This document shows, one piece after another, positions 7,882-35,335 of a DNA stretch of 64,000 bases. Position 1 is the stretch's first letter; the number at the start of each line of letters is the position of its first letter. The notes below the pieces were generated by a model. It was not told the DNA's origin and did no database searches. It saw only the letters and a program-made list of their open reading frames with translations. The DNA is taken from contig JAUXWO010000064.1 of NCBI GenBank assembly GCA_030680175.1, positions 71,949-135,948 of the forward strand, in the 5' to 3' direction. Position numbers and translations under genes: made by a program. Source of the stretch: Vicinamibacterales bacterium. GTDB taxonomy: Bacteria > Acidobacteriota > Vicinamibacteria > Vicinamibacterales > UBA2999.

Positions 7882-8119
7882 CGGTTTTCTCCTCGGTGAC
7901 CAGCTCCGCCGGCGTCAGCCGGCCTCCCCGACGAACCGGGCGGGCTGACTCCACCGCCACCGGTTCGAACCAGGACTCGTGGACGTAGGCGCGGAGCGTG
8001 TGCCCTCCGCCGATCGACTGGTCCAGGTCCACCATCTGGCCGGCCACGAGCTGCGCGCTGCCCTCGAAGGCCGTCCCGGTCACGCTCGCCGTCACGCGGC
8101 ACTTCCGCAGGTCTGCCAT
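7871..8119 (-). CDS. Hypothetical phage protein
   Basis: 82-aa ORF overlapping the tail-tube start by 11 nt; no family recognised. Confidence 0.4.
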   Translation of the reverse strand: MADLRKCRVTASVTGTAFEGSAQLVAGQMVDLDQSIGGGHTLRAYVHESWFEPVAVESARPVRRGGRLTPAELVTEEKTDGD

Positions 8120-8128
8120 CGTCGCCCC

Positions 8129-11939: not shown

Positions 11940-11967
11940 GGTTCCTGTTCTCCGGTGAAGGGGGTCG

Positions 11968-14694: not shown

Positions 14695-14922
14695 CTACGA
14701 GATGCGCCTAGCGTCGTGTCGCGCACGTTCCACGGGGAACACTCGTTGAGCCTCATCGAGCGGAATCCGCCACACCCGTCCGACCCTCACCGCGTGCAAG
14801 GCCCCGTCCTCGATCATCCGCAGGATGGTGCGTTCGTCAACCAGCAGGTAAGTCGCCAGGTCAGTGACCGTCACGAACGACACCGGGTGCGACGACAAGT
14901 CAACGAGCGGCGGGCGCTTCAT
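14695..14922 (-). CDS. Excisionase-family helix-turn-helix DNA-binding protein
   Basis: 75 aa; FVTVTDLATYLLVDERTILRMIEDGALHAVRVGRVWRI matches the HTH_17/MerR-type excisionase fold; ATGA overlap with the TerL stop. Confidence 0.55.
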   Translation of the reverse strand: MKRPPLVDLSSHPVSFVTVTDLATYLLVDERTILRMIEDGALHAVRVGRVWRIPLDEAQRVFPVERARHDARRIS

Positions 14923-16892
14923 CGGTTCCTCCGCAGCCAGTCCCGACGGGGCGGCAACCAGGACGTCTTGCGAGCAGGCCCCGTAGACGGAGGCTCACTC
15001 TTCGGCGCCGACACAACCGACGGCGCGGGGCGCTCGATGCCGAGATTCTTTTCGATCGCCACCCAGTCCCCCTCACGGAACCGGTCGAGCCCCACGAGCG
15101 CCGCAGCAGCACGCGCATACACCCGGGTGTCCAGCCAATGGTTCTCACGGCCTGGAATCACTTCCCACCCGTACACGGTGTAGCCCTTCGCGCTCCGATG
15201 CGACACGAGCTGCTCGGCGGTGAGCTGCCTGAAGTACTCTTCACCGTGCTCAGGGAAGTGGCAGAACCCGGCCGGATACGGGCGGCCCTCTGCGAGCGCC
15301 TCCGCGCCTGGCGGCTGAAGCGCCAGCCATCCATACAGCTCCGTCTTCGCAGTGTCCGTCCCGACCGGCCACGCCTTGGCGGACTTCTTGCCGGCGCGGC
15401 CATCGAAACGCACTTCCACCCGCGAGGGAACCCCGATCAACATCAGAGCCTTGGCCTTACCGAACACAGCGATCACCCGCGAGATGGGATGCTTTCGCAC
15501 CCAGCCGTGCACCACCTGCCCGTTGAACCCGCAATCGATCGCGAGCATCGCGATCGGCAACTCTGCACCGGCCTCGTGCGTAAAGGTGCGCGCGAGTAGC
15601 GCCTCGAGTTGGGCCCACGGGCCAGCGGCCAGGTCGGATGTATCCCCGGCGAGCACACCAGCGTCGATCGACCAGGAGCACTTCTCCCGGCCCCAGCCCA
15701 CGACTTCGTAGACGAGCCGGTCCTTCTGGACGTCGACGCCCGCCGTCAGGAACCGCACACCCGACGGGCACGTGCCGAGCTGGTAGGATTCGCGGCGCGC
15801 GTACAGGCGTTCCCACTCCGGCGCCTCGCCGCGGTCCTGCCACGGCTCGCCGAGGCCCGTGTTGACGAACGTCTTCAAGTGCTCGGGGCCCGCGTGCGTC
15901 GCCGCGACGAACTCCGAGCAGATCTGTCCCCAGGTCGCGTTCGGCGAAAAGCTGTAGGCCGCCCAGATGTGGAAGCTCGCGTGACCGGTGAAGGGCGGCG
16001 GCGCCGGCGCGTCTGGGAACTGCGGATGTGGACCAGGACGCCACTCACCGCCCTGCACCATCCGCCGCTTGTCGTCGTGCTCGATCTCGGCGCCGCACTC
16101 GAGGCAGACGTAGATAGCCGCCTCCGGCCGGTTCTTCGGCCACTTGAACCGCGAGAACACCAAGACCTGCATGAAGCCACAATGCGGGCAGGGCACGTAG
16201 TAGCGCCGCTGGTCGCCAGCGTTGAAGAGCTGCTCGATGCGACTCCGGCCGCCGACCGTGGGCGTGCTGCCGGCGATGATCTTCCGGTCCCAGTAGTACT
16301 CGGTGCGCCGGATGCCGAGCTGAATCTGGTCGCCCTCACTCCCCGCACTGGGCGGGTAGCCGTCGGTCTCGTCGAAGATCACCACCTTGCGGCTCACGCG
16401 GCGGAAGCCGCGCGCGCTGTTGGCGCCGACCAGCGAGAGCGACCCCCCGGGGAACCGCTTCAAGAGGATCGTGTTCTCCGAGTCGCGCGTCTTCGGCTCA
16501 GGCACCAGGTCACGGAGCGTCGGGCAGTCGCGCAACATCGGCGCGATCTCTTCCTTCGAGTAGCCGGCGGCATCCTCGATCGTCGGCTGCACCACCATGA
16601 TCGGACACGGGTCCTGGTGGATGTAGTAGCCAACGGTCGCGTTGATGCACTTCGTGTAACCGATGCGGGCGCTCTTCATCACGCTCACCTGCGTGACGAG
16701 GGGATCCGTGATCGCATCCATGATCCCGCGCTGGTAGGGCAGCGTGCGCCACCGACCGGGCTCCGCGGCGGACTCGGCCGACAGGTAGAAGTGCTCCTCG
16801 GCCCAGTCGGACAGGTTCAGGCGCGGCGGCGGCCGCCAGGCGCGCCGGGCCCGCTCGAACAGCGCCTCGCCTTCGATCGAGAGCATCGTCAT
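14919..16892 (-). CDS. terL: Terminase large subunit, lambda GpA family
   Basis: Trimmed to ATG 16892 (ATGA overlap with the small terminase stop); LSDWAEEHFYLSAESAAEPGRWRTLPYQRGIMDAITDP…VMKSARIGYTK is typical of Terminase_GpA. Confidence 0.92.
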   Translation of the reverse strand: MTMLSIEGEALFERARRAWRPPPRLNLSDWAEEHFYLSAESAAEPGRWRTLPYQRGIMDAITDPLVTQVSVMKSARIGYTKCINATVGYYIHQDPCPIMVVQPTIEDAAGYSKEEIAPMLRDCPTLRDLVPEPKTRDSENTILLKRFPGGSLSLVGANSARGFRRVSRKVVIFDETDGYPPSAGSEGDQIQLGIRRTEYYWDRKIIAGSTPTVGGRSRIEQLFNAGDQRRYYVPCPHCGFMQVLVFSRFKWPKNRPEAAIYVCLECGAEIEHDDKRRMVQGGEWRPGPHPQFPDAPAPPPFTGHASFHIWAAYSFSPNATWGQICSEFVAATHAGPEHLKTFVNTGLGEPWQDRGEAPEWERLYARRESYQLGTCPSGVRFLTAGVDVQKDRLVYEVVGWGREKCSWSIDAGVLAGDTSDLAAGPWAQLEALLARTFTHEAGAELPIAMLAIDCGFNGQVVHGWVRKHPISRVIAVFGKAKALMLIGVPSRVEVRFDGRAGKKSAKAWPVGTDTAKTELYGWLALQPPGAEALAEGRPYPAGFCHFPEHGEEYFRQLTAEQLVSHRSAKGYTVYGWEVIPGRENHWLDTRVYARAAAALVGLDRFREGDWVAIEKNLGIERPAPSVVSAPKSEPPSTGPARKTSWLPPRRDWLRRNR

Positions 16893-17491
16893 ACGGACTC
16901 GGTCTTCTCGGCGCCGCGGCCGGCCAGGTCCTCGAGGGCCTCCCGGATCAGCACGTCGAACTGGAGAACGTCGGCGTGCGTCAGGTGCGGCATGGTCGCC
17001 TTCGCCTTCCGGCTCACGGCGAGCAGCTTCGTGCGGCACTTCGAGTACTCGTCAACGATCCGCGCCTCGACTGCCCGGGCGTTCACGAGCTCGCCGGCGC
17101 GCTCCCGGTAGTCGAGCTCGGCGATGCGCGCCTTCCAGTCCTTCTCGAGAGCCGTCGCCTCACTGAGGGTGAGCGAGCGCGACACCGTATCGCCCGAAGG
17201 CGTCTCGTCATCCTGGCTGTCGGACGGTGGCACCACGTCGTCGGCCGCAGACAACGGGAGCGCCGGCGTCGAGGCTGCGCGCGCGTCGGCACGCGCCTTC
17301 ACGTAGCCAGGCGCCCGCGACAGGTCCGTGCCGGCGTCCCACTCCCGGTCGGCCACGGCCACGTCGGCGATCTTCGGGCGGCCCTTCTCGTCGCGCACGA
17401 CGCACAGCCGCAGGCGGCCGGACTGGACCGCGACCACGACCGAACTCGGCGCGACGCCTCTGTGCCTGGCGTAGGCCCGCAACGACATCAT
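16889..17491 (-). CDS. terS: Terminase small subunit (Nu1-like N-terminal HTH)
   Basis: Coupled to TerL; N-terminal MSLRAYARHRGVAPSSVVVAVQSGRL is HTH-like; start 17491 (ATG) or 17506 (GTG). Confidence 0.65.
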   Translation of the reverse strand: MMSLRAYARHRGVAPSSVVVAVQSGRLRLCVVRDEKGRPKIADVAVADREWDAGTDLSRAPGYVKARADARAASTPALPLSAADDVVPPSDSQDDETPSGDTVSRSLTLSEATALEKDWKARIAELDYRERAGELVNARAVEARIVDEYSKCRTKLLAVSRKAKATMPHLTHADVLQFDVLIREALEDLAGRGAEKTESV

Positions 17492-17629: not shown

Positions 17630-17869
17630 TCACCCGTCGCGCCAGCGGCTGCGGTCGCGCGCGTACTGTCGTTCGCTCGGCAGCTCGTCGCCTCCGTCGC
17701 GGTCCAGCACCTCACGAAGCGCGGGCTGCCGCGCCTCCCCCTGCACATCACGCGTGCCCGTGCACGCAGGGTAGCGAGCACAGCCCCAGAACCGCTGACC
17801 CGTCGACGCGTTCGCGCGACGCACCATCCGGCCATCACAGAGCGGACACGTCACAGGCTCAGGCTTCAC
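17630..17869 (-). CDS. Topoisomerase-type C4 zinc-finger protein
   Basis: 79 aa; CPLCDGRMVRR…GQRFWGCARYPACTGTR matches the zf-C4_Topoisom pattern; ATGA overlap with the DnaB stop. Confidence 0.6.
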   Translation of the reverse strand: MKPEPVTCPLCDGRMVRRANASTGQRFWGCARYPACTGTRDVQGEARQPALREVLDRDGGDELPSERQYARDRSRWRDG

Positions 17870-19203
17870 GAGTCACCGTCCTTCCAACTCTCGAACCGGG
17901 TCTGCTGACTGATGAACCGCAGCTTCACCAACCCCGTCGGGCCGTTGCGCTGCTTAGCCAGCATCAGCTCGGCGAGGCCAGGGTCCGTCGGTTCCCGCTC
18001 GTAGTACTCCGGGCGATGCAGCAGCAGCACGACGTCGGCGTCCTGCTCGAGGGCACCCGACTCCCGCAGGTCTGAGAGCTGCGGCCGCTTGTCGGCGCGC
18101 GCCTCGTTCGCTCGCGACAACTGCGCCAGCGCCACGAGCGGCACCTGCAACTCCTTCGCGATCTGCTTCAGGATGCGGCTGGTCTGCGCCACCTCCTGCT
18201 GACGGTTCTCCGCATCCAAGCCCTTGCCGTCCAGTAGCTGCAGGTAGTCCACCACGAGCAACACCAGGTGATGCGTGGACGCGAGACGCCGAGCACGCGA
18301 CCGCAACTGCTCGGGTCCCATGATCGGGCTGTCGTCGATGGCGAAGCCGCCACGCGCAATCTCGCCGAGCGCCGGCGTGAGCCGCTCGTATTCGCCCGAC
18401 CCGAGCCGTCCCGTCAGGAGGCTGAAGTTGTTGATCCTGGCCTGCAACGCAGCCGCCCGCAGGCCGATCTCCTGTCGCCCCATCTCGACGCTGACGAACC
18501 CCACGGTGCCGTGACGCGCCGCCTCGAGCGCGATCTGCAGCGCGAAGCTCGTCTTACCCATCGACGGCCGCGCAGCGACGATGATGAGGTTCCCGGGCTG
18601 GAGCCCACGCGTCATGCCGTCGAGCTTGCCGAAGCCCGTCGCGAGACCGGTGATGTACTGCTGCCCGTCAGCCAGACGCTGAATCGTCTGGAACGTCTCC
18701 CGCATGAACTGCTCGGCGTGCACGTAGCCCTCGCTCGTGCGACCACGACTCAGGTCCAGCAGCAGCCGCTCGGCCTCCGTGATGATTGCCTCGCCGCCCT
18801 CGACCGCGTCGTAGCCGAGGGCCATCAACCTGTTCGCGACGAAGATAACCTGCCGGCACAGCCACCGGTCACGCACCAGCGCCGCGTAGTGCCCGGTGTT
18901 CACACCGCGTGGCACGCCGTCCATGAGCGCCGCCAGATACGCCGGGCCGCCCACGTCCTCGAGCGTGCCCGCCCGCCGCAGGTGCTCGGCCAGCAGCATC
19001 AGGTCGATGGGGTCGCCCCGACGGTCGACCTCGATCATTGCCGCGTAAATGTTCAGATGCGCCGCGCGATAGAACATCTCCGGGCGTAGCAGCTCGGTCG
19101 CCTCGGCGAGCTGCGCCTGGTCCACCATCACAGCGCCCAGGACCGCGCGCTCGGCGTCCAGGTGGTGCGGCAGTGTGCGCGACTCGCTCATGACGGCACC
19201 CAC
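17866..19203 (-). CDS. dnaB: Replicative DNA helicase DnaB
   Basis: 445 aa; PHHLDAERAVLGAVM N-terminus, Walker A GNLIIVAARPSMGKTSFAL, and …ALAQLSRANEARADKRPQLSDLRESGALEQDADVV. Confidence 0.95.
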   Translation of the reverse strand: MGAVMSESRTLPHHLDAERAVLGAVMVDQAQLAEATELLRPEMFYRAAHLNIYAAMIEVDRRGDPIDLMLLAEHLRRAGTLEDVGGPAYLAALMDGVPRGVNTGHYAALVRDRWLCRQVIFVANRLMALGYDAVEGGEAIITEAERLLLDLSRGRTSEGYVHAEQFMRETFQTIQRLADGQQYITGLATGFGKLDGMTRGLQPGNLIIVAARPSMGKTSFALQIALEAARHGTVGFVSVEMGRQEIGLRAAALQARINNFSLLTGRLGSGEYERLTPALGEIARGGFAIDDSPIMGPEQLRSRARRLASTHHLVLLVVDYLQLLDGKGLDAENRQQEVAQTSRILKQIAKELQVPLVALAQLSRANEARADKRPQLSDLRESGALEQDADVVLLLHRPEYYEREPTDPGLAELMLAKQRNGPTGLVKLRFISQQTRFESWKDGDS

Positions 19204-21937: not shown

Positions 21938-22153
21938 CTACCAGGCCACCAGGTGCGGCGCCGCATCGGCTCCGAGCCAGCGCCGCACCCGCGCGGCTTC
22001 ACGTTGGCAACCGGACCGCGCGCACACCTCGGCGAGGGCCGCGAGCTCCTCACGCGTCGGCGACACGCCGCCCGCGTCGATCGCCTCGGCCAGCGCCTGC
22101 ACCGCGAGCTGCAGACGCCGGCGCACACTCTGGTCGGACGGCAACACCGTCAC
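21938..22153 (-). CDS. Hypothetical phage protein
   Basis: 71-aa ORF, ATGA overlap with the ParB-like gene stop. Confidence 0.4.
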   Translation of the reverse strand: MTVLPSDQSVRRRLQLAVQALAEAIDAGGVSPTREELAALAEVCARSGCQREAARVRRWLGADAAPHLVAW

Positions 22154-23832
22154 CGCTTCACTCTCCGACGCGTCGTCTTCTTCGCGGATGCCCCCTTGGC
22201 CGACTTCGCGGCCTTGGACGCGACCTTCGCAGGCGATGCCTTCTTCTTGGCAGGCGCCGGCGTCTCGGCCGGCAGGTGCTTCACACGGATCGCCTGGAAC
22301 GGCTTCGGCTTCAGACCGAACGGCACGACCACGTCCTTCAGGAACTCCTCGAATGAATCAGCGCGTTCACAGAAGGACAGCACCCCCATCACGAGCAGCG
22401 CCGCCGCGGGCTTCTGATGCCACGACGAGGCGCCAAGGGCCGCGACCGCGTCTCTCACGAGCATCTCGTAGACCGTGGACAGCTTCGCCGCCTGCGTCTT
22501 CGTGATAGACGTCGCGCCCTTCAGCTGACTGACAGCCTCGTCGGTCAGGTCGTCCCGCATGGCGTACCACGCCGCGCGCTTGCGTTCCGCTGCTTCGACC
22601 TCGGCCCGGCGCGCGGCCTCATCGACGACCTCACGCTGTGCCGCCTGGCCGCCCTTCCCCTGCGCCCGCAGCTTCGCGCTCTTCTCGCGGGCCTTGATCT
22701 CCTGCGCCCAGTGGACCTGACACTTGTCCTTGGCGATGCAGACCTGCATGGTGGTGCCGTAGCCGCGGCCGGCGACGAACACCCCGAGCACGCCGTGCTC
22801 ACACACGGGCGCCGAGTCAGACGACCCGTCCGCGCGGTGCCACGACTGAGCGCCGAACGTGCGCTCACCGCCCGGGTCGCGCGCGTCATCGTCGACCCGG
22901 TATTCCTGCGTGATCGAGACAACCTTCTTCCCGCGCCCAGGCACCGCCTTGGCGGCTTCCACCACGGCCTGCACAGGCCCGAAGTCGAGCGGCGCCGCCT
23001 GCGCCATGTGCTGCACGTCGAAGCGCACGTGATACGCGATCCACGCCTCGAGCTCCTTGACCGTGACCGGCTTCAGCCGCGGCCACCCGGCCCGCGCCAG
23101 CTCGAGGAGCTGCGCGTCGATGCCGTCGGGCCCGGCATCCTCATTGAAGCCGTCGAGCGCGTCCACGTCGTCGCAGTCGTCGGGGTCCTCGCCGAAGTCG
23201 AGCGTCTCGCCCGTGCGCGCCCAGAGACCACCACGACCGCGATGGTCGGGTGGCGCGAGCGCGCGCCGCTGGTCCTCGGGCTTGAGCTTGGCCAACAGCT
23301 CGGCATGGCCCACCAGGATCTTCTCGGCCTCGAGCGCGAGTGCCGCCGGCGGGATGAGCTCGAGCAGCTTCATGCGGTCCCACACGTACCGCTCGCTGCG
23401 GCTGATGCGGTCCGCGATGTACGCCGCCGAGTAGCGCGAGGGGTTGCTGGCGAGCAACGCCTGGTAGCCGCGCGCCTCCTCAAGGGGCGTCAGGTCCTGG
23501 CGCTGGATAGCCGAGAGCAACTGGATCTCGATGACCTCGCCGTCGCTCAGCTCGTCGCGGAAGATCACCGGGATCGAAGACAAGCCGACGCGGGCGGCCG
23601 CACGGTAGCGGCGCTCACCGTCGATCACTTCGATGTAGTCGGAGCGGCGCCGGGCCAGCAGCGGCACGATCACGCCGTGCTGCCGGATGTTCGCCTCGAG
23701 GTCCGTCATCGAGCCGGCATCGAACCGCTTCCGCGGGTTCAACGGCGACGGGCGAAGCGCCTCGATCGCGACCCGCTTCGTCTCAATCGCCTCGCCCAGC
23801 GCGGGCGCGTCGCTCATCATCGTGGCTGCCAT
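22150..23832 (-). CDS. ParB/Srx-like nuclease-domain protein with long C-terminal region and Lys-rich tail
   Basis: Trimmed to ATG 23832; IEALRPSPLNPRKRF…IVPLLARRRSDYIEVIDGERRYRAA…IQLLSAIQRQDLTPLEEARGY is a ParB N-terminal domain; the C-terminus ends KKKASPAKVASKAAKSAKGASAKKTTRRRVKR. Confidence 0.8.
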   Translation of the reverse strand: MAATMMSDAPALGEAIETKRVAIEALRPSPLNPRKRFDAGSMTDLEANIRQHGVIVPLLARRRSDYIEVIDGERRYRAAARVGLSSIPVIFRDELSDGEVIEIQLLSAIQRQDLTPLEEARGYQALLASNPSRYSAAYIADRISRSERYVWDRMKLLELIPPAALALEAEKILVGHAELLAKLKPEDQRRALAPPDHRGRGGLWARTGETLDFGEDPDDCDDVDALDGFNEDAGPDGIDAQLLELARAGWPRLKPVTVKELEAWIAYHVRFDVQHMAQAAPLDFGPVQAVVEAAKAVPGRGKKVVSITQEYRVDDDARDPGGERTFGAQSWHRADGSSDSAPVCEHGVLGVFVAGRGYGTTMQVCIAKDKCQVHWAQEIKAREKSAKLRAQGKGGQAAQREVVDEAARRAEVEAAERKRAAWYAMRDDLTDEAVSQLKGATSITKTQAAKLSTVYEMLVRDAVAALGASSWHQKPAAALLVMGVLSFCERADSFEEFLKDVVVPFGLKPKPFQAIRVKHLPAETPAPAKKKASPAKVASKAAKSAKGASAKKTTRRRVKR

Positions 23833-26915: not shown

Positions 26916-27295
26916 GCCGCACCGCCCTTCGCCTTGGCGATGGCGGCCTCGGCCACGCAGGTTGCGCAACCAGTGCAGAAGCCCTTGGCGTAGCCGCATG
27001 GATGGTCCGCGACCATTTGCTCCAGCGCCGGCAGCAGGACCGGGAGGGCCGCGATCGCGTGCGCGGTCTCGCGCTCTGTGTCGAGCGTGTCGCCGGGCTG
27101 GCCATTCTCGACGGTGGCAATCAGCCACTTGCGCGGGCCGTCCACGACGACGGTCCACCGCGTGGCGTCGTCGCCGAGCCCCTGCATGGCCTTCCACCGG
27201 CGGTTCTGTTCGCCCGAATTTTCGCCCTTCGATTCGGCTGGTACGGCGGACCCGCGACGACCAACGATAGAGGGGACACGAGGACAAGATGACAT
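26912..27295 (-). CDS. Hypothetical protein (Cys cluster CGYAKGFCTGCATC)
   Basis: Trimmed to ATG 27295, which shares 1 nt with the Cro-like stop. Confidence 0.4.
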   Translation of the reverse strand: MSSCPRVPSIVGRRGSAVPAESKGENSGEQNRRWKAMQGLGDDATRWTVVVDGPRKWLIATVENGQPGDTLDTERETAHAIAALPVLLPALEQMVADHPCGYAKGFCTGCATCVAEAAIAKAKGGAA

Positions 27296-27558
27296 CAAGC
27301 CACCGCTCCTTCCCGAGACGGGAACAGGTCCTCGATCGAGCAGCCGAAGTACGCGGCGAGGCGACGGGCCGTCTCGAGCCGAATGGCCCGATAGCGACCA
27401 CGGCACAAGTCGCTCATCTGCGCGTCGGTCATGCCGAGCTCGGTGGCGACCGCACGCTGCGTCACTCCGAGCAGCTTGATCGCCGCGGCGACGCGGTTCG
27501 GCGAGTCCTGGTCTATCGGGACATCCCGAAGGCTTTCGATTTGTGCCGCATCGAGCAT
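27295..27558 (-). CDS. Cro-like XRE-family HTH regulator
   Basis: 87 aa; VAAAIKLLGVTQRAVATELGMTDAQMSDLCRGRY…AYFGCSIEDLF; divergent from the CI-like repressor. Confidence 0.75.
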   Translation of the reverse strand: MLDAAQIESLRDVPIDQDSPNRVAAAIKLLGVTQRAVATELGMTDAQMSDLCRGRYRAIRLETARRLAAYFGCSIEDLFPSREGAVA

Positions 27559-27670
27559 GCACGTAATTTACGCATCTCCCGATAACGTGTCAACACGAAA
27601 TTACGCGATGAGTGTAAATCTATCCGGCTCTTGCGTTTATGGACTGCACGTAGCTGTATGCTCTGACCCG
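27559..27670. promoter_or_regulatory. Divergent immunity switch region with operator-like palindromes
   Basis: Locally AT-rich spacer; perfect palindrome CGTAAtTTACG at 27562-27572 abutting the cro start; related CGAAATTACG at 27596-27605; GTAAAT at 27614. Confidence 0.5.
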
Positions 27671-28558
27671 GTGGGGACCATCGGGGAGAACATCCGTCGA
27701 CTACGCGTCGAGAGAGGATTTCGCGCGCAAGGCGACTTCGCTGAGGCGATGAGGGTCCCCCAGAGCCGCGTCTCGGACTGGGAGAACGATCGCTACGGGC
27801 TACCGGACACAAGCACACTGCTCAAGATCGCGAAGACACTCGGCTGCTCCATCGACGACCTGCTCTCCGGCGTGGACCCGCGCTACGACACCGCGGCGTC
27901 GACGTCGGTGAACGAGCTGCTCGAGAAGCTGCGGGCGATGACGGGCACGCCGGCGAAGCCCGTGAAGGCGAAGACGCGGGTACCGAACGCGATTCCGCCG
28001 GATCGGGATGCGGTGATTGCGGAGATTCGAGCCGTGGCGGCCCGGCTGGGGCGCGGTCCAGGTGGTGGCGGCGACGACGCGGGCGAGTTCGTCGACATCT
28101 CCGGCTCGGTGCGCGACGACCTGCCGGTGATCGGCGAGGGCGAGGCCTCCCCACGCGACACGCTCTTCTGGGACGACACAGGCGCTCTGCTCGCGCGCAT
28201 CACGGACCGGATCCGCCGGCCGTACGACGTGCGCGACCCGCGCGCCTACGGCGTGCGGGTGCGGGGCGACTCGATGATCCCGATCTACGAACCGGGCATG
28301 ACGGTCGTCGTCTCGCCGTCGCGCCCGGTGCGCAGCGGGCACCGCGTCTACCTGGAGCTCACCTCCGGCGAGCGCCTGGTGAAGATCGCGCGGAAGGCCG
28401 GGGACGGCTGGATGCTCGAGAGCGCGAACCCTGCGCACGAGCCACGGTTCGTGCGCAAGAGCGACGTGAAGCTGATGCACCGGATCGTCTGGGTCCGCGA
28501 ACCGGACGACGACGAGCACCTGGTCGACGAAGAGAACGGCGGGAAGCGGCGGCGGTAG
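27671..28558 (+). CDS. CI/LexA-like repressor (XRE HTH plus S24 peptidase domain)
   Basis: VGTIGENIRRLRVERGFRAQGDFAEAMRVPQSRVSDWEN HTH; C-terminal AYGVRVRGDSMIP…ERLVKIARK Ser/Lys dyad. Start is GTG 27671 (HTH-proximal) or ATG 27608. Confidence 0.85.
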   Translation: MGTIGENIRRLRVERGFRAQGDFAEAMRVPQSRVSDWENDRYGLPDTSTLLKIAKTLGCSIDDLLSGVDPRYDTAASTSVNELLEKLRAMTGTPAKPVKAKTRVPNAIPPDRDAVIAEIRAVAARLGRGPGGGGDDAGEFVDISGSVRDDLPVIGEGEASPRDTLFWDDTGALLARITDRIRRPYDVRDPRAYGVRVRGDSMIPIYEPGMTVVVSPSRPVRSGHRVYLELTSGERLVKIARKAGDGWMLESANPAHEPRFVRKSDVKLMHRIVWVREPDDDEHLVDEENGGKRRR

Positions 28559-28583: not shown

Positions 28584-28919
28584 GTGAGCACACCATTGAA
28601 GGAGAAGAGTCTGCCGCTCGCGATCGGCCTGAACCTCGTACTCCCCGGGGCGGGGTACATCTACATGGGGCGCGTCATCCTCGGGCTCGCTGCGTTGTGC
28701 CTCGTGTCCCTCGTGGTGGTGTCGACGGGCCTCCTGCTTCTCCTGCCGACCTGGTTGGGCATCAACGCGATCATGGCGATCGACATGGTGATTCTCTTCA
28801 ACAAGCGGCGGAAGGCCCAGACACGACGGTGCCCTCGATGCGCGGAGGAGGTCCAACTCCAAGCGGAGATCTGCAAGCACTGCCGCAGCGATCTACCCCC
28901 GCTCGTCACAGCGAGCTGA
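28584..28919 (+). CDS. Membrane protein with C-terminal zinc ribbon
   Basis: 111 aa, GTG start with GGAGGAG upstream; two or three TM segments (LPLAIGLNLVLPGAGYIYMG, ILGLAALCLVSLVVV, TGLLLLLPTWLGINAIMAI); CPRCAEEV…CKHCRS. Confidence 0.55.
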   Translation: MSTPLKEKSLPLAIGLNLVLPGAGYIYMGRVILGLAALCLVSLVVVSTGLLLLLPTWLGINAIMAIDMVILFNKRRKAQTRRCPRCAEEVQLQAEICKHCRSDLPPLVTAS

Positions 28920-28972
28920 GTCAGACGGCTGGCCCCACTCCCGGGGTCGAGCCGAACCCCTGGAGGTCGACC

Positions 28973-29488
28973 ATGAGAGCGGTGCGGGTTCTGTCGTTCG
29001 TCGTCGGCGCCGCGACCATCTTGCTCACCGCGGCAGCGGAAGCCCAGCCCAAGCCCACGACGACCGTCGTGGCACAGCACGATGCACCGGTCACCATTTC
29101 CAGCTACACGGCGCAGTACCGCGAGCGCTCACAGTACGCCGCCGAAGGCGTGCACCATTCGGTGAAGTACCAGAACAGCTCCGGAAGGACGATCGTTGCG
29201 ATCCAGTTCGGCCTGGCGACATTCGACGTATGGAACGAGTTCCTCAACCGTACGAACGGGATCGCCCTGGAGACGGTCACTGGCGGGCGATCCCAGAGTG
29301 GCACATGGATCGCGAACCCTCTAAGGGCCTTTACTTTCCTGACCGGCGTCGCCTGGGTCAGCAAGGTGCGGTTCGAGGACGGGGAGATCTGGACCGCCGA
29401 CGAGAAGACCGTCCTTGAAGCACTGAGAGCGATCGAGGCCGATTTTGACGCGGCGCGCCTGAAACCGGAACCTCCTCCAGGCGGCTAA
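28973..29488 (+). CDS. Secreted hypothetical protein
   Basis: Trimmed to ATG 28973 (GGAGG 7 nt upstream); signal peptide MRAVRVLSFVVGAATILLTAAAEA-QP; no family recognised. Confidence 0.55.
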   Translation: MRAVRVLSFVVGAATILLTAAAEAQPKPTTTVVAQHDAPVTISSYTAQYRERSQYAAEGVHHSVKYQNSSGRTIVAIQFGLATFDVWNEFLNRTNGIALETVTGGRSQSGTWIANPLRAFTFLTGVAWVSKVRFEDGEIWTADEKTVLEALRAIEADFDAARLKPEPPPGG

Positions 29489-29628
29489 CTAGGAGGCGCC
29501 AAGGGAACCAGCACCGGGCGGCTACATCCCGGCAGGCGGTAAAGGCAGGCGACGATGCAGCTTGCCGTGAAGGACCAGGATGGGCCACCGACGAGGCCGT
29601 TGGAACGGGCGGTGAGGGGCGAGCACCT

Positions 29629-30069
29629 ATGAAGAAAGTCGGCCTACTCGTCGTCCTCCTGGCGTTCTACGCGCTCTGGTACGTCGGCACGGTGACGAAC
29701 CCACCGCCGCCGCCCACCACGAGCACGCAGCCGGCGCGGACGCGGCCGGTCGTGGCGGCCGACCCAACGGGCTGCGTTCCGCATGCCGTGATCCACAGCA
29801 GTGCGTACTGGGCGGCGGAGCTCGGCCAGCCGGAGGCGGTCGTGCTGCAGACCCACCGCATCAACCTCTGGAACCGGCCGGATGACCGGCGCCAGAAGGT
29901 CGGCGAGATGCGCGTGGGGTCGCGCGCGGTGATTCTCGACGAGCGCGATGGCTTCTACCGTGTCAGGAGCCCGCTCGACAACGCCGCGGGCTGGGTCAAC
30001 GAGCTGCAGGTGGAGAGCGTCGTGCACGCCGACACCGAGACCAGGGAACTCTGCACGCCGTCATCGTAG
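29629..30069 (+). CDS. Membrane-anchored protein with Pro-rich linker and SH3b-like domain
   Basis: MKKVGLLVVLLAFYALWYVG anchor, PPPPPTTST linker, then …NLWNRPDDRRQKVGEMRVGSRAVILDERDGFYRVRSPLDNAAGWVN (bacterial SH3 pattern). Confidence 0.55.
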   Translation: MKKVGLLVVLLAFYALWYVGTVTNPPPPPTTSTQPARTRPVVAADPTGCVPHAVIHSSAYWAAELGQPEAVVLQTHRINLWNRPDDRRQKVGEMRVGSRAVILDERDGFYRVRSPLDNAAGWVNELQVESVVHADTETRELCTPSS

Positions 30070-30096
30070 CGACAGGACCACGTCGGGAATTATCCA

Positions 30097-30474
30097 ATGC
30101 CGTGTGACTACACCATCGACCCCGTCGATGGCATACTCCGCCTCCGGGCGACCGGCGCGTGCACGTATGCGTGCTGGTCGGCCACGCTCACCCGCGCCAC
30201 ACAGGATCCGGCCTTCACCGCCGGCATGCCGGTGTTCGTAGACGTGCGCGAAGGCACGGCCCTGCCCGCACCCGGGAAGGTGGAGCGGATCGCGCGGACC
30301 TGGGAGGTGACGTTTCCCCGGAGCCGGGTGGCCCTGGTCGCGCTGCCGGGGAGCGCCGCGTACGGCATCGCCCGGCAGGTTGGCGTTCACGCGAAGGACC
30401 GGGTTGCGGCCTTCGACGACATCGCCGAGGCCGAGGCTTGGTTGCAGCCCCCACGGAGCGGACCCGATGTATAG
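30097..30474 (+). CDS. Hypothetical cytoplasmic protein (possibly STAS/SpoIIAA-like fold)
   Basis: 125-aa ORF 27 nt after the previous gene; the pattern VFVDVREGTALP…RVALVALPGSAAYGIARQ…AFDDIAEAEAWL only loosely recalls STAS-like proteins. Confidence 0.45.
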   Translation: MPCDYTIDPVDGILRLRATGACTYACWSATLTRATQDPAFTAGMPVFVDVREGTALPAPGKVERIARTWEVTFPRSRVALVALPGSAAYGIARQVGVHAKDRVAAFDDIAEAEAWLQPPRSGPDV

Positions 30475-30556
30475 CGAGAAGCGTGACTACGCCGGCGGCA
30501 CGGTGATGACGATCGCCGCTGCGGCCGGCGAGTCCGCCTGGGAAACCATCTAGCTC

Positions 30557-31078
30557 ATGGCTGTCGGCTTCTCGAAACCGCGCGACACCCGGGCGATTCC
30601 CGAGCACGTCCTCTGGACGCTCACGAAGGGCGGGCGCACGGCGGAGGCGCGCACCCGGATGGTGCCACTCGGGCCCGAACTCCGGGTCTACGTCTCACAC
30701 CTCGAGACCGGCGCGCTCGAGCTGCTGTGGTCCGAGGTGTTCCGCGTGCAGGACGGGGGCGGTGCCGCACTCCGCGACCTGGCCGAGCAGACACAGCGGG
30801 ACTTCGAGGCGCGCGGGTGGAAAGCGGTGAATCAGGTCCAGCGAGGCGATCTTGTCGTGACACCGACGCTGGTCGGCGGGACCCTCGCCCACCATGCGGC
30901 GTTCCAGATCGTTGTCTGGGAAGAAGGTCGCCGGCTCGGCCCCCTTTTCGACGACGCCGCGCGCGCGACTGAGCGGGCTCGGACATGGGGCGCTCGGCTA
31001 GGGGTCCGCGCCTGGCACACCACCGCGCGCGACCATGAGGGGCAATGGGTCCTGCACGAGGTCGTGAATGGCGAATAA
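30557..31078 (+). CDS. Hypothetical cytoplasmic protein
   Basis: 173-aa ORF on the same strand; no family recognised. Confidence 0.45.
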   Translation: MAVGFSKPRDTRAIPEHVLWTLTKGGRTAEARTRMVPLGPELRVYVSHLETGALELLWSEVFRVQDGGGAALRDLAEQTQRDFEARGWKAVNQVQRGDLVVTPTLVGGTLAHHAAFQIVVWEEGRRLGPLFDDAARATERARTWGARLGVRAWHTTARDHEGQWVLHEVVNGE

Positions 31079-31256
31079 CTGTCCCCGAGACACCGTGGCC
31101 TTGAAGCGTTGCCTGGTCAGCGACCCGACGGAGCAGACGCAGCGGGACTTCGAGGCGGGCGGATGGGCCTCGGTCGGGACGATGCCGTGAGCACGGTCGA
31201 AAGGCGCTACTATGTCTACAGGCGCGCCACCCGGGCGGCTGGGGAGGTGATCTCTC

Positions 31257-31958
31257 GTGACCAAGAAGCTCGACATCTACAAGGGACGCGATCCGCGCCA
31301 GATCCCGGCCTACACGATCCAGGAAGCAGCGCACTATGTGCGGGTGCCGGAGCAGACGCTGCATCGGTGGCTGTACGGCTGGAACAAGGGCGCCGGTGGT
31401 CGCGCGACCCGGCTCGTGGCGCCGGCGGATCCTGCGGGACATCGCCTCTCGTTCGTGAATCTGGTCGAACTACACGTGCTCCGCGCCATCACCAGGGAGC
31501 ACGCGGTCAGAATGCCGAAGGTGCGCGAGGCCATCAACACGCTCGAGCGGAAATTCAAGACGCCGCACCCATTGGTCGACGAAGAGATGCAGACCGACGG
31601 ACGCAATCTCTTCGTGACCAGGCTCGGCAAGCTGTTCAACCTGAACAGGGACGGACAGATGGCAATGCGCGAGATCTTGGAGGCGCACCTGAAGCGGATC
31701 GAACGCGACGAAGCGGGTCTAGCCGTTCGCCTCTACCCGTTCACACGCGACACGACGAAGGCGGAATCGGTGCCGCGGCTGGTTGCAATCGACCCACGGG
31801 TGGCCTTCGGTCGGCCGACGATCGTGGGCACGCGCATCCCAACCGCCGAAGTGGCAGACCGGTTCGCGGCGGGCGATTCCGTGGAGTTGCTGGTCGGTGA
31901 GTACGGTGCCACCGCTGCGGCGCTCGAGGAAGCGATCCGCTACGAGCACGCCGCCTAG
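31257..31958 (+). CDS. DUF433-domain protein with N-terminal HTH (putative antitoxin)
   Basis: C-terminal DPRVAFGRPTIVGTRIPTAEVADRFAAGDSVELLVGEYGATAAALEEAIRYE matches DUF433; N-terminal YTIQEAAHYVRVPEQTLHRWLYG is an HTH. Confidence 0.7.
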   Translation: MTKKLDIYKGRDPRQIPAYTIQEAAHYVRVPEQTLHRWLYGWNKGAGGRATRLVAPADPAGHRLSFVNLVELHVLRAITREHAVRMPKVREAINTLERKFKTPHPLVDEEMQTDGRNLFVTRLGKLFNLNRDGQMAMREILEAHLKRIERDEAGLAVRLYPFTRDTTKAESVPRLVAIDPRVAFGRPTIVGTRIPTAEVADRFAAGDSVELLVGEYGATAAALEEAIRYEHAA

Positions 31959-32370
31959 CGCGGTTCGACTCCTGATCGACGAGTGCCTTGGCCGCGTGGC
32001 CGTTCCCGAGGCACTTCGCCAGGCCGGCGCCTCGGTCGTCCTCCACAGCCAGCTCTTCGCGCCCGGCCTTGACGACGTGGACTGGCTGCGCCAACTGGCG
32101 AATCATCCTGACCTTGTTGTCCTCTCGAAGGACAAGCGAATCAGGAAGCGAACGATCGAGCTTGAAGCGGTCATGGCAGGGCGTGTGCGACTCTTCGTGC
32201 TCACGGCAGGCAAACTGAACGGGGCCGAGCAGGCCGAGTCCTTCGTGCGTGCGCTCACACGGATCCTGCGATTGGCCAGACGCCCAGGCCCATTCATCGC
32301 AACCGTGACTGCTGGCGGTCACGTCACAATCACCTTCGACGGCGGTCACGGGACCCGCCGCCATCGGTAG
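31906..32370 (+). CDS. DUF5615 / PIN-like (Mut7-C-like) protein (putative toxin)
   Basis: Core VRLLIDECLGRVAVPEALRQAGASVVLHSQLFAPGLDDVDWLRQLANHPDLVVLSKDKRIRKR fits DUF5615. The family-typical N-terminus (31963) has no canonical start; the nearest in-frame GTGs are 31906 and 31897, inside the upstream gene. Confidence 0.55.
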   Translation: MPPLRRSRKRSATSTPPSAVRLLIDECLGRVAVPEALRQAGASVVLHSQLFAPGLDDVDWLRQLANHPDLVVLSKDKRIRKRTIELEAVMAGRVRLFVLTAGKLNGAEQAESFVRALTRILRLARRPGPFIATVTAGGHVTITFDGGHGTRRHR

Positions 32371-32381
32371 GAACACCGTCG

Positions 32382-33629
32382 ATGGCCAGCTTCCACGAAC
32401 CCGGCCGCGGCTGGCGCTACGACTTCCGGATGTACGGGCGGCGGCACCGTGCGCCACGCGCCTTCCGCACGAAGAAGCTGTGCGACGCCGCAGAGCGCGC
32501 GCTGCGCGACCGCCTGCAGCGCGTATCCGCCGGCATCCCGGACGACGCGCCTGGTCACGGCCCTCGGTTCTCGGAGTGGGCCGCCGTGTGCTACACCTAC
32601 GCCGCAGAGCGGCGCCGCCTCCGGTCCCCAGAGTCGTTCGACCACGTCCTGCGTGTCATCCTGCGGTTCTGGGGCGCCGAGCCGAGCGACCCGGCCAAGG
32701 TGGTCAAGGGCGAGCCGTACCACGATCTGACGCTCGACGCGCCGATCCGCGATGGGCGCTGGCTGTTGCGCTTCGAGGAGTGGATGGCCGAGAAGGGGCT
32801 GTCGGGCTCGACGAAGAATCACTACCGCTCAGCCTGCTCGCGGCTCTACGCCGTCGCCATGCTCCCGGAGTACCGCACGCAGAGCGGCATCATGTTGAAC
32901 CCGTTCCGAGGCATCCTGCGCGACCAGACGCGACGCCGCGATGCGACCTTCAGCCTAGCGCAGCTCCGCGACGTGCTCGGGGCCGCACCGCCAGAACTCG
33001 CGCTGGCCATCCAGATCGCGCTGCTCGCGCCAAAGCTGCGCCTGGCGAACATCACGGCGCTGCGCTGGGATGCCAACCTCGATCGCGAGCTGACGTGGAT
33101 TCGCCTGCGTGAGCACAAGACCGCCGACGTCACCGGCCGCCCGCTCGTGACCCCGATCGTCCCCGCGCTGCGCGCGCTGCTCGCGGCCGTCCAACCGCCG
33201 GCGCGCCAGGTGACGCGGCGGCCCTGGGTCATCAACGTCGACGGCGCGCCCGTGAAGCCGCGACAGATCCAGCGCGCGCTCGAGCGCGTGTGCCGCCAGC
33301 TCGAGATTCCCTACGGCCTGGCGGCCGACGGCGTCACGTTCCACAGCTTGCGACACACGGCCGCGACGCAGCTCGCCGCCATCGGCGTGCCCGAGGCCCT
33401 CCGGAAGGACGCCATCGGTCACCGCGACATCCAGACCACGCAACGGTACACCCACCTCACGCCGTCGCACGAGCTCGCGCCGCTCGAGCTCCTCGCGGCC
33501 GCGTTTGCACCGGCAATGAGCGGGGTGAATTCCGGGGGGACTCCGAAGCTGGCGGGCCGGAAACGGGCGCGCGTGACGCGACGGCCCGCACGTCAAGAAA
33601 CGCCCGCCAAATCGAGGAAAACGGCGTAA
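32382..33629 (+). CDS. int: Tyrosine recombinase / phage integrase
   Basis: 415 aa; …ALLAPKLRLANITALRW…, VTFHSLRHTAATQLAAIG and GHRDIQTTQRYTHL give the R-H-R-Y catalytic set. Confidence 0.92.
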   Translation: MASFHEPGRGWRYDFRMYGRRHRAPRAFRTKKLCDAAERALRDRLQRVSAGIPDDAPGHGPRFSEWAAVCYTYAAERRRLRSPESFDHVLRVILRFWGAEPSDPAKVVKGEPYHDLTLDAPIRDGRWLLRFEEWMAEKGLSGSTKNHYRSACSRLYAVAMLPEYRTQSGIMLNPFRGILRDQTRRRDATFSLAQLRDVLGAAPPELALAIQIALLAPKLRLANITALRWDANLDRELTWIRLREHKTADVTGRPLVTPIVPALRALLAAVQPPARQVTRRPWVINVDGAPVKPRQIQRALERVCRQLEIPYGLAADGVTFHSLRHTAATQLAAIGVPEALRKDAIGHRDIQTTQRYTHLTPSHELAPLELLAAAFAPAMSGVNSGGTPKLAGRKRARVTRRPARQETPAKSRKTA

Positions 33630-33672: not shown

Positions 33673-33726
33673 TCAAAATCCTGTGCCCGCAAGGGCGTGT
33701 GGGTTCGACCCCCTCCGCCGGCACCA
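33673..33726 (+). other. attR: 3' fragment of tRNA-Leu(CAA), from anticodon loop through variable arm, T arm and acceptor 3' strand to CCA
   Basis: CTCAAAA-TCCTG-tGCCCgcaaGGGCgt-GTGGG-TTCGACC-CCCTC-CGCCGGC-A-CCA. The class II variable arm and T loop are clear. No matching 5' anticodon stem, D arm or 5' acceptor strand lies upstream. Confidence 0.5.
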
Positions 33727-33853: not shown

Positions 33854-35335
33854 TCAGCGCGGCGGCACGTGCGTGTGATGGCTCGACGGCTTCACGTCGC
33901 CCACCAGCACCGTGCCCATCAGGCCGCCGTCCGCGTGGTCGAGGATGTGGCAGTGGATCATCCACTCGCCCGGCCGTTCATCGAACGTCACGAGCAGGCG
34001 GATCGTCTCGTTCATCGGAACGTTCAGCGTGTCCTTCCACTCCATGGGGCTGATTGGCACGCCCGCCTCGTCGACCGGCATGAAGAAATACCCGTGCAGG
34101 TGGAACGGGTGGTCCCACGGCGTCTGGTTGTCGAGCGTCCAGAACTGCGTCTCGCCAATCCGCGCCTTGAAGGGCTCCGCCTTCCAGAACGGCACGCCGT
34201 TGATCCGGAACTCCGACTCGCCCTTTCCGTCCACCGGCGGCAGCGTGAACTGCATGGTCACCGGGGTGGCGCCCTCCACCGCGGGCGGCACGATCGCCCG
34301 GCGCATCTCCGGGAGCACCGGCGCGGGGAGCGGGGCCTCGTCGGTGAACTGGATGGTGAACAGATCCTCGACGCTCCGGTATTCGATGCTGCCGTACCCG
34401 CGGTTGTAGAGCAGGGACCGCAGCGTGATCTCACCGCCGGGCTCGCCCATGGGCATGACGATCAGGTCGACGCGCTCCCCCGCCGTCACGAGCACCACGT
34501 CCTTCCGCTCGCTGTATTCCTGGATGCCGCCATCCCCGCCGATCTTGATGAACGTCTGCCCTTCGAGATCGAGGAAGAAGAACCGGCTCTTCGCGGTGTT
34601 GACGATGCGCCAGCGCTGCGGGACGCCGGCGCGGGCGCGCAGTTCAGGCCGCACACGGCCGTTGACGAGCACGTGATTGCCTTCGCGGCCGAACACCATC
34701 CCCGCGGACCCGCCCGAATCGGCCGGCTCGAGCAGGCCGCGCGGGCCGATGCCGATGTCGCTCAGCACGATCGTCAACGCGTCGGCCACGCCCACGTCCT
34801 CATCGGGTTCCTCGACGAGCAGCGGGCCGTACAGCCCGTAGCCCACCTGCGCCGCCGACATCACATGCGGGTGGTACCAGAAGAGGCCGCTGTCGGGCAC
34901 GACGAAGTCGTACACGAACGTCTCGCCCGTCTTCACGGGCGGCTGCGAGATGCCCGGCACGCCGTCCATCTCGATCGGCACACGGATCCCATGCCAATGG
35001 ATCGTCGTCTCCTGCTCGAGCTCGTTCCGGAAGTGAACGATCAGCCGATCGCCGACCCGTGCGCGGATCAGCGGGCCGGGGAGGCCGCCGTTGTAGGTCC
35101 ACGCCGTGACGCGCGTCCCCGGGGCCACCTCGACCTCGGCCAGCTTCGCCACGATCTCGATCTCGACAATGCCGGGGTCGGGGTTGCGGTCGGGCGCCTC
35201 GGCGAGCTTGATGTCCGCATCCCACCCGGCGGGCAGGAGCGAAGGACGCTCGGCAACGGCAGGGACCGCACTGACGGCAGCCAGGCCGGCCGCCAGAGCC
35301 AGCAATCGGACGGAGGACCAACGGACGGGGATCAT
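33854..35335 (-). CDS. Multicopper oxidase (CopA/CueO-like)
   Basis: 493 aa; signal peptide; copper-site motifs HWHGIRVP, WYHPH and HCHILDHADGGLMG. Confidence 0.9.
   Translation of the reverse strand: MIPVRWSSVRLLALAAGLAAVSAVPAVAERPSLLPAGWDADIKLAEAPDRNPDPGIVEIEIVAKLAEVEVAPGTRVTAWTYNGGLPGPLIRARVGDRLIVHFRNELEQETTIHWHGIRVPIEMDGVPGISQPPVKTGETFVYDFVVPDSGLFWYHPHVMSAAQVGYGLYGPLLVEEPDEDVGVADALTIVLSDIGIGPRGLLEPADSGGSAGMVFGREGNHVLVNGRVRPELRARAGVPQRWRIVNTAKSRFFFLDLEGQTFIKIGGDGGIQEYSERKDVVLVTAGERVDLIVMPMGEPGGEITLRSLLYNRGYGSIEYRSVEDLFTIQFTDEAPLPAPVLPEMRRAIVPPAVEGATPVTMQFTLPPVDGKGESEFRINGVPFWKAEPFKARIGETQFWTLDNQTPWDHPFHLHGYFFMPVDEAGVPISPMEWKDTLNVPMNETIRLLVTFDERPGEWMIHCHILDHADGGLMGTVLVGDVKPSSHHTHVPPR

Follow-up and report, generated by a model that had tools for sequence, protein, structure and literature searches.

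A five-gene block between the repressor and integrase of an Acidobacteriota prophage as a probable assembly of independently acquired small genes

Organization of the five-gene block

The window analyzed here is a stretch of 64,000 nucleotides (nt) from a metagenome-assembled genome (MAG) of a Vicinamibacterales bacterium (Acidobacteriota; assembly GCA_030680175.1, contig JAUXWO010000064.1, positions 71,949-135,948 of the forward strand). It contains a tailed prophage, in which a block of five consecutive plus-strand open reading frames (ORFs) lies directly downstream of the CI-like repressor gene, at positions 28584-31078. An initial annotation had proposed these five genes as a single exclusion or defence module. 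The products are referred to as g1 (111 amino acids (aa), 28584-28919), g2 (171 aa, 28973-29488), g3 (146 aa, 29629-30069), g4 (125 aa, 30097-30474) and g5 (173 aa, 30557-31078). The coordinates of that annotation proved exact and the flanks are those it had named, with a repressor comprising HTH_3 and Peptidase_S24 domains on the upstream side and, on the downstream side, a DUF433/HTH_66 and PIN_10 gene pair followed by the integrase. The block runs in the same direction as the repressor gene with short intergenic gaps, and a consensus scan found neither a sigma-70-like promoter on the plus strand nor a U-tract or intrinsic terminator within it, in keeping with its earlier description as cargo of the lysogeny module.

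All five ORFs are real genes: their composition is that of coding sequence, the same five products were called independently on a Logan contig of identical sequence, and most of them belong to conserved families. Each ORF has a G+C content of 0.79-0.91 at third codon positions (GC3) and of 0.44-0.57 at second codon positions (GC2). Conserved homologues of g2, g3, g4 and g5 occur elsewhere, whereas g1 has only weak PHROG and tblastn matches. Identical database copies of g2, g3 and g5 are annotated as hypothetical proteins of a Vicinamibacterales MAG. The pooled GC3 of the block is 0.843, compared with 0.842 for the toxin-antitoxin (TA) and integrase genes, 0.889 for the structural genes, 0.886 for the early genes and 0.920 for the host genes. 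Thus, the third positions are less extreme than those of the structural genes, as had been judged by eye, and the shift relative to the surrounding phage genes is modest.

Database searches assigned none of the five products to a characterized family. PADLOC-DB v2 contained no match for g1, g3 or g4, and the matches of g2 to PD-Lambda-5_B (E 0.022) and of g5 to ZorC (E 0.0058) were single partial stretches of 12-13.5 bits that represent noise. PHROGs v4 contained no match for g2-g5, and g1 matched PHROGs of unknown function only. NCBIfam yielded no match for any of the five, tblastn of the five concatenated proteins against GenBank phages and PLSDB plasmids yielded none, and single-protein scans of IMG/VR with g1, g2, g3 and g4 detected no relatives. 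Given the lack of PADLOC, NCBIfam and annotated-PHROG matches, g1-g5 are not ordinary lysis or structural genes, nor a listed defence system. The earlier statement that no known defence, lysis or structural family could be recognized is thereby borne out by searches of Pfam, PADLOC, PHROGs and NCBIfam.

Co-occurrence in other loci

The five products, together with the repressor, TA and integrase proteins, were compared by tblastn with approximately 25 fetched loci that contain a homologue of g2, g3, g4 or g5. None of these loci carries two of g2-g5, and the gene tables of the loci agree with this result. No homologue of g1 was detected among them, except for a weak zinc-ribbon look-alike near the g3 homologue of locus L026. 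The initial annotation had tied its single-module proposal to co-occurrence of the genes in other elements; since no such co-occurrence was seen beyond this phage in the loci compared, that proposal is not supported by its own test.

One comparison is with a related prophage (loci L003-L005), whose integrase, repressor helix-turn-helix (HTH) domain and dNMP phosphatase are 41.5%, 47% and 48% identical to those of the window, respectively. The N-terminal domain of g5 (g5N) is the only part of the block shared with the repressor-to-integrase interval of that prophage, where the L003 homologue is 71% identical; g1-g4 are absent from the interval. The neighbours of g5N there comprise a YebY/DUF2511 membrane protein, a PycTM-like protein, small ORFs, a 272-aa protein and a PIN protein. 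The viral contig L014, with an integrase 42% identical to that of the window, contains none of g1-g5. Small envelope proteins of the YebY/DUF2511 type are found in the lysogeny modules of both L003 (6324-6962) and L018 (7367-7678). A common pool from which morons are exchanged is suggested by these genes, with YebY/DUF2511 in L003 and L018, g3 in L017, L018 and the window, and g5N in both L003 and the window.

The membrane zinc-ribbon protein g1

Hydropathy analysis of g1 shows one weak and two strong hydrophobic segments, which are followed by the segment KRRKAQTRR and then by a CPRC-x12-CKHC motif. The gene has a GC3 of 0.85. The similarity to the Pfam families Zn_ribbon_3 and DZR (E~3e-4) reaches 20.2-20.7 bits against a cut-off of 27, and the CxxC pairs can be read directly from the sequence. 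PHROGs 8032 and 8436, both of unknown function, match the last transmembrane (TM) segment and the ribbon with E~1e-9, and PHROG 1788 is matched as well. When g1 alone was compared with GenBank phages by tblastn (E<=1), weak partial matches were obtained (E 5e-4 to 1) that extend over one TM segment and the ribbon. These phage look-alikes are TM and zinc-ribbon proteins, two of which adjoin tape-measure genes in temperate phages of enterobacteria. One of the weakly g1-like two-TM and zinc-ribbon proteins is gp43 of Cronobacter phage phiES15 (L029, 3860-4429), whose gene directly follows the tape-measure gene; another, from Klebsiella phage ST974-OXA48phi18.2 (L030, 3851-4282), is encoded immediately before a 2.9-kb "tail protein" gene. 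The g1 product is probably a small inner-membrane protein with two to three hydrophobic segments and a cytoplasmic C-terminal ribbon.

The secreted protein g2

An N-terminal signal-like segment precedes the body of g2. Its six homologues are 32-61% identical, and 31 columns of the family alignment are invariant. The AlphaFold model (predicted local distance difference test score, pLDDT, of 75.7) is an all-beta sandwich with a C-terminal helix. A fold search of the PDB returned nothing at E<1e-3, only generic sandwiches of the immunoglobulin, ApaG and arrestin-like types; the g2 family profile had no match among PDB sequences, and an alignment-based IMG/VR scan detected no relatives. The homologues are located next to resolvases (L006) and next to IS1595 and a type I restriction-modification system (L007/L008). 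As judged from the model and from these neighbourhoods, g2 is a predicted secreted beta-sandwich protein of an uncharacterized family that occurs in unrelated islands. An antisense ORF at 29104-29364 (GC3 0.82) was rejected as a shadow of g2, because the two share third codon positions and g2 has conserved homologues.

The membrane-tethered g3 family

The product of g3 consists of an N-terminal TM anchor, a proline-rich linker and a conserved domain of ~95 aa bracketed by two invariant cysteines (C49 and C142). The family, represented by twelve homologues and 11 further loci, has 19 invariant columns and shares the motifs HRINLW, GSRA and YRVRSPLD. The matches of g3 to SH3_3 (18.0 bits, cut-off 27) and SH3_16 (16.9 bits, cut-off 25.8) are below the Pfam gathering thresholds; sub-threshold matches to the two families recur at the same place in 8/13 and 6/13 family members, respectively. 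Thus, g3 can be called SH3b-like by resemblance only. The family profile had no match among PDB sequences. The hydrophobic and signal segments of g1, g2 and g3 are as the initial annotation described them, and its assignment of these three products to the envelope stands.

Homologues of g3 occur in at least 11 different contexts, some of which are lysogeny modules. An alignment-based IMG/VR scan located the domain in two viral contigs of ~44 kb. In the first (L017), the gene (4496-5050) is situated between a divergent HTH pair (3614-3898 on the minus strand, 3862-4254 on the plus strand) and a convergent integrase gene (5022-6272), which is the same interval as in the window. In the second (L018), it (7746-8288) is 0.8 kb from the integrase gene and adjoins the DUF2511/YebY gene. 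A further homologue (L022) is found 1.2 kb from an integrase and a DUF3631 protein, and that of L010 has an HTH_17 gene as a neighbour. The surroundings of two other homologues (L009, 2833-4434, and L012, 7887-13025) resemble defence islands: the L009 homologue adjoins an Abi_C protein, and the L012 homologue adjoins a DUF1780 endonuclease-like gene and a gene for a 1233-aa SIR2_2 protein.

Zinc ribbons accompany the g3 domain repeatedly. In protein P0017 and in the L017 and L018 proteins, an N-terminal CPxCG...CPxCG zinc ribbon, a TM segment and a Pro/Ala linker are fused to the g3 domain. In L026, a gene for an 89-aa protein with a TM segment and a C-terminal zinc ribbon (725-994) lies 730 nt upstream of the g3 homologue (1723-2184), and its product is similar to g1 over 43 aa (pairwise E 2e-8). 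The gene order in this low-GC metagenomic contig, a g1-like gene, a gene for a secreted protein and the g3 homologue, is that of g1-g2-g3, and the secreted proteins of L026 and the window are non-homologous. Two additional small zinc-ribbon membrane genes are found nearby in L026 (2172-2444 and 4561-4866). The fetched loci, 263 kb in total, contain seven small ORFs that combine a zinc ribbon with a TM segment, and each of the seven is either fused to a g3 domain or located no more than 2.4 kb from one. This proximity is a lead for a functional link between g1 and g3, not proof of one.

The SpoIIAA-like protein g4

Relatives of g4 were sought separately by an exhaustive HMMER library search, which returned 176 sequences at E<=1e-3 among 1.84 billion representatives. 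PF11964 (SpoIIAA-like) is matched by 24/50 aligned relatives, with a best E of 9.5e-9, which substantiates the earlier description of g4 as loosely STAS-like. The g4 sequence itself has no Pfam match at E<=0.1, PF11964 included, and the g4 profile matches PDB entries 2q3l and 2ook weakly (E 0.01-0.016). The two nearest relatives are chromosomal singletons, with neighbours of the sulfatase/TonB type or of the AP-endonuclease type. By virtue of its relatives, g4 is classified as a putative cytoplasmic, single-domain SpoIIAA-like protein (STAS fold) of the host type.

The g5 protein, its tail and the g4-g5 hairpin

The homologues of g5 are 96-126 aa in length and align to residues 1 to ~95 only. 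In the structure model, the N-terminal domain (residues 12-90, pLDDT ~90) comprises four antiparallel strands and a helix, whereas the tail has pLDDT values of 29-52. The GC3 also differs, 0.90 for the N-terminal domain versus 0.74 for the C-terminal 85-aa tail (30821-31078). A fold search with the N-terminal domain against the PDB and BFVD gave no significant match; look-alikes at E~0.25-2 included beta4-alpha proteins of the PC4/Whirly/PUR type. One uncharacterized phage protein was returned at E 2.8e-3 and was not used. The family profile had no match among PDB sequences, nor did an alignment-based IMG/VR scan with g5N find relatives.

The origin of the tail is indicated by a direct repeat (D1) of 50 nt, the two copies of which (30771-30820 and 31117-31166) are 86% identical, are spaced 346 nt apart and enclose the tail. 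The second copy is a remnant of the 3' end of the N-domain coding sequence that is read on the plus strand in another frame, that of ORF 31068-31190, and translates to ...EQTQRDFEAGGWASVGTMP*, which matches the C-termini of g5 homologues. With the repeat in place and the original 3' end 346 nt downstream, the 173-aa ORF therefore emerges as the product of a rearrangement, and the tail is probably a recent, non-functional extension that arose from a rearrangement of ~346 nt. Thus, of the 173-aa cytoplasmic protein originally described, the first ~95 residues are a conserved unit, and the remainder is a non-conserved by-product. A search for a decayed second g5N paralogue in the sequence after g5 revealed no more than the C-terminal remnant of ~20 aa. 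A minus-strand ORF at 30998-31276, suggested by the local G+C pattern, was rejected, as the frame of ORF 31068-31190 explains that pattern. In L003, the g5N homologue is the middle one of three small genes (74, 96 and 96 aa; 7761-8559) with overlapping stops and starts, the first of which encodes a CPTC...C zinc-ribbon-like motif; the window retains the middle gene only.

The gap between g4 and g5 contains a GC-rich stem-loop, predicted by folding of the plus strand, at 30481-30537. The segment 30465-30560 has a minimum free energy of -50.1 kcal/mol (z = -4.95), and 0/200 shuffled sequences fold as well. No U-tract follows the stem-loop, and the terminator scan did not call it. The hairpin could be a terminator, an RNA-processing site, or the boundary of a transcription unit, a moron or a recombination event.

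Origin of the block

A moron, in the sense of Juhala and Hendrix, is a gene that one phage carries and its relatives lack at the corresponding position, with a differing composition; by the same definition, it forms a transcription unit of its own, with a promoter and a terminator, and is expressed from the prophage (PMC3594210). The comparison with L003-L005 and L014 indicates absence at the same position in related phages, and the composition of the block does differ from that of its surroundings, by a modest amount. We consider it probable (roughly 0.68) that the repressor-integrase interval is a hypervariable moron region, in which five unrelated small-protein families were acquired independently and do not constitute one system. 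The failure of the genes to occur together elsewhere, the shift in composition, the scar left by rearrangement in g5 and the g4-g5 hairpin jointly fit a moron-rich and recombination-prone region.

Several points weigh against this conclusion. Tight packing on one strand is also what an operon-encoded system would show, and co-transcription of the block with the repressor gene is something that we only infer. The sampling of homologues is thin, with 5-12 for each of the g2, g3 and g5 families, and many of the contigs are 1-5 kb in length and cannot show neighbours. Furthermore, zinc-ribbon membrane modules are tied to the g3 domain by three fusions and one neighbouring gene, so that g1 and g3 may not be fully independent of each other.

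The last of these points leads to the alternative that survives best, in which g1 and g3, perhaps with g2, form a smaller envelope module equivalent to a split version of the fused zinc ribbon-TM-linker-g3 proteins, and block entry of the superinfecting genome or penetration of the cell wall. The fusions P0017, L017 and L018 speak for such a module, the L017 and L018 copies being located between regulators and integrase, as do the parallel gene order in L026 and the consistent association of the small zinc-ribbon and TM ORFs with the g3 domain. However, the fusions carry the ribbon at the N terminus and g1 carries it at the C terminus, the similarity does not extend beyond one TM segment and a CxxC...CxxC motif of a generic kind, and the intervening secreted proteins are not homologous. 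Zinc-ribbon and TM anchors are common on many bacterial membrane proteins, which also counts against the module. No zinc-ribbon partner is present at six or more g3 loci whose flanks are long enough to judge (L009, L010, L011, L012, L022 and L025). The loci were, moreover, all selected via g3 and are partly related to each other (L018 equals L021, and L023 is similar to L026), so that the enrichment is no clean statistic. On balance, a g1-g3 module seems unlikely, with perhaps one chance in a handful of being correct.

A related proposal concerns the g3 family as a whole. Membrane-tethered, SH3b-like and often fused to a zinc ribbon, it would constitute a new and widespread family of prophage superinfection-exclusion proteins in soil and aquatic bacteria, with g1 supplying the ribbon in trans. 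Their site of action would be the envelope, where they might cover the peptidoglycan or capture the tail tip or the tape-measure protein of an incoming phage. In this broad form the proposal is doubtful, and we would assign it somewhat long odds. In a narrower form, g3 is a plausible candidate for superinfection exclusion by a single gene, possibly in concert with g1.

The block may also be largely neutral baggage, composed of captured host-like genes and decaying fragments that persist in a recombination-prone stretch and are not under selection for a function in the lysogen. Any function would then be a lysogenic conversion concerned with envelope stress, adhesion or the like rather than with phages. 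Ongoing rearrangement is evident from the tail of g5 and from the remnant downstream of it, the relatives of g4 and g2 are cellular rather than phage proteins, and the GC3 of the block is below that of both phage and host genes. Morons with non-defence roles are also well known, among them lambda Lom and O-antigen modification genes (PMC3594210). In contrast, the ORFs are intact and the invariant columns number 31 in g2 and 19 in g3; intact ORFs and strong column conservation within the families argue for selection on the proteins. In addition, g3 and g5N recur specifically in prophage lysogeny modules. The block being mostly baggage is improbable in our estimation.

Least probable by far, and close to untenable, is one multi-component exclusion or defence system in which a membrane protein with a zinc ribbon would serve as sensor or effector, alongside one pair of products in the periplasm and another in the cytoplasm: the shared strand, the short gaps, a place downstream of the repressor like that of lambda rexAB, the lack of a known family that claims the genes and a mix of envelope and cytoplasmic products compatible with signalling would all suit it, but no two of g2-g5 occur together in the ~25 loci, the set is missing from related prophages with 41-42% identical integrases, the two nearest g4 relatives are ordinary chromosomal singletons, g5 bears a rearrangement scar and a low-confidence tail, and a strong hairpin parts g4 from g5. 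If true, such a system would represent a new defence architecture; the evidence argues against it.

Predicted roles of the products

The orientation, the short gaps and the lack of consensus terminators suggest that transcription of the block in the lysogen accompanies or closely follows that of the repressor gene, and the g4-g5 hairpin may split the block into transcription units. The g1 protein would insert in the inner membrane and keep its zinc ribbon on the cytoplasmic side, and g2 would be exported as a soluble periplasmic beta-sandwich. The g3 protein would be tethered to the inner membrane and display its SH3b-like domain in the periplasm on a proline-rich stalk; its most probable ligand would be peptidoglycan, some other part of the envelope, or a part of the incoming phage. 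Presumably, g4 is a SpoIIAA-like STAS protein of the host type, and g5 a small beta4-alpha protein that moves among related prophages. Individual genes may have a part in defence or exclusion. Phage exclusion, if any, would come from single genes acting at the envelope, much like HK97 gp15, P22 SieA, T4 Imm/Sp and Ltp, with g3 as the first candidate and g1 as the second. Both g4 and g2 resemble genes captured from cells, an origin also proposed for gp15/YebO (PMC3594210).

In these terms, the block appears to be a well-delimited, moron-rich lysogeny module of a prophage of the Acidobacteriota, a host group whose phages have barely been studied. Three small families (g1-like, g3 and g5N) recur as phage cargo without a known function. 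The g3 family, which adjoins integrases in at least four elements, offers a concrete target for the study of an envelope-level exclusion mechanism.

Comparison with known systems

SH3b domains (SH3_3, SH3_16) typically serve lysins and NlpC/P60 enzymes as modules for binding to the cell wall. Repeated sub-threshold matches at the same place indicate a resemblance to them in the C-terminal half of the g3 domain. In contrast to such enzymes, g3 has no catalytic partner domain, and it has an extra conserved helical N-terminal half (HRINLW) and the two invariant cysteines.

By its length of ~125 aa, its single domain and the family matches of its relatives, g4 is comparable to the SpoIIAA-like proteins of PF11964 (PDB 2q3l/2ook). 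It differs from them in that g4 itself falls below detection and that the locus offers no link to anti-sigma partner switching.

The lambda Rex system is a two-gene pair that comprises a cytoplasmic sensor and a four-TM channel. Similar to rexAB, the block is situated directly downstream of a cI-type repressor gene on the same strand and includes a membrane protein. However, Rex is a conserved pair, whereas the block comprises five unrelated genes without conserved pairing. Neither PHROG nor PADLOC searches matched g1-g5 to a named exclusion or defence family.

Superinfection exclusion by a single envelope protein is exemplified by P22 SieA, T4 Imm and Sp, lactococcal Sie2009, Ltp of S. thermophilus and T5 Llp. 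These proteins are small, are membrane-anchored or lipoproteins, are expressed from prophages and function either in the periplasm or at the outer surface of the cytoplasmic membrane; the predicted architecture of g3 is alike, and its gene recurs beside integrases. No homology of g3 to any annotated PHROG family was detected. To our knowledge, a domain with the two invariant cysteines and SH3b-like core of g3 has not been described for SieA, Imm/Sp, Sie2009, Ltp or Llp. P22 SieA is the subject of PMC10883804, and superinfection exclusion is reviewed in PMC11436027.

The closest precedent among morons may be gp15 of phage HK97, a small inner-membrane exclusion protein with cellular homologues (YebO), the gene of which (gene 15) occupies a slot adjacent to the tape-measure gene (Juhala et al. 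2000; Cumby et al. 2012; summarized in PMC3594210). It serves as the type example of a moron. The block shares with HK97 gp15 and other morons the small size of the genes, their absence at the same position in relatives, the deviating composition, the many envelope proteins and the cellular homologues of some products. The g1-like TM and zinc-ribbon genes of phiES15 and Klebsiella prophages hold the same tape-measure-adjacent slot as gene 15. No sequence similarity of the block proteins to gp15/YebO was detected.

Prophage setting

The tailed prophage extends from less than 1 to ~33.7 kb of the window. Profile matches on the minus strand identify a tape measure (3119-5812), a head-protease (10386-12410), a portal (12920-14413), a large terminase (14919-17039) and a DnaB-like helicase (17866-19203); with all of these present, the element is a prophage. 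The G+C content of the window is ~70%, and values of 0.65-0.70 at 27-32 kb compare with ~0.69-0.71 elsewhere. The early region encodes a ParB_N and HTH_ParB protein of ~560 aa (22150-23832, minus strand), after which many small ORFs without family matches are found at 24.2-26.4 kb.

The lysogeny switch comprises two divergent genes. A Cro-like HTH regulator is encoded on the minus strand at 27295-27558 (PHROG transcriptional regulators, E~3e-9; Pfam HTH_31/HTH_3 on the identical Logan gene), and the CI-like repressor is encoded on the plus strand at 27671-28558 (Peptidase_S24, 5.6e-16; HTH_3, 1e-11; PHROG_4, 1.4e-35), with an uncertain start at GTG 27671 or ATG 27749. The AT-rich switch region between them (27559-27670) contains a promoter-like TTGACA-17-TAAATT element on the minus strand (27593-27565). 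Imperfect palindrome-like motifs, CGTAATTTACG and CGAAATTACG, are also present in this region and are possible operators.

On the other side of the block, the plus strand encodes a DUF433/HTH_66 antitoxin-like protein (31257-31958; DUF433, 1.1e-13; HTH_66, 8.1e-6), a PIN_10 toxin-like protein (31963-32370, start codon uncertain; PIN_10, 2.3e-18) and a tyrosine integrase (32382-33629; Pfam Phage_integrase, 1.2e-18). The scores for DUF433 (51.2 bits, cut-off 23.6), HTH_66 (26.6 bits, cut-off 24.3) and PIN_10 (66.5 bits, cut-off 26.2) are all above the Pfam thresholds. Adjacent genes above these cut-offs identify the DUF433 and PIN neighbours as a putative type II toxin-antitoxin pair.

A fragment that reads as the 3' end of a tRNA (T-arm, acceptor and CCA), GGGTTCGACCCCCTCCGCCGGCACCA, is located on the plus strand at 33701-33726, 72 nt past the integrase stop codon, and aligns with the 3' part of the tRNA that adjoins the integrase gene in L003. 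ARAGORN found no intact tRNA in the window; Rfam identified no family in the window and did not confirm the tRNA-like fragment. The fragment is probably a remnant of the attachment (att) site and probably marks the right boundary of the prophage. Beyond it, a host gene for a multicopper-oxidase-like protein (33854-35335, minus strand) was recognized by eye from the translation alone. The 17-kb Logan contig SRR13727517_33575 (L001/L002) contains an identical lysogeny end and stops ~70 bp past the integrase gene. Its termination at the prophage boundary could reflect a repeated att/tRNA sequence or a mixed population of lysogens and non-lysogens.

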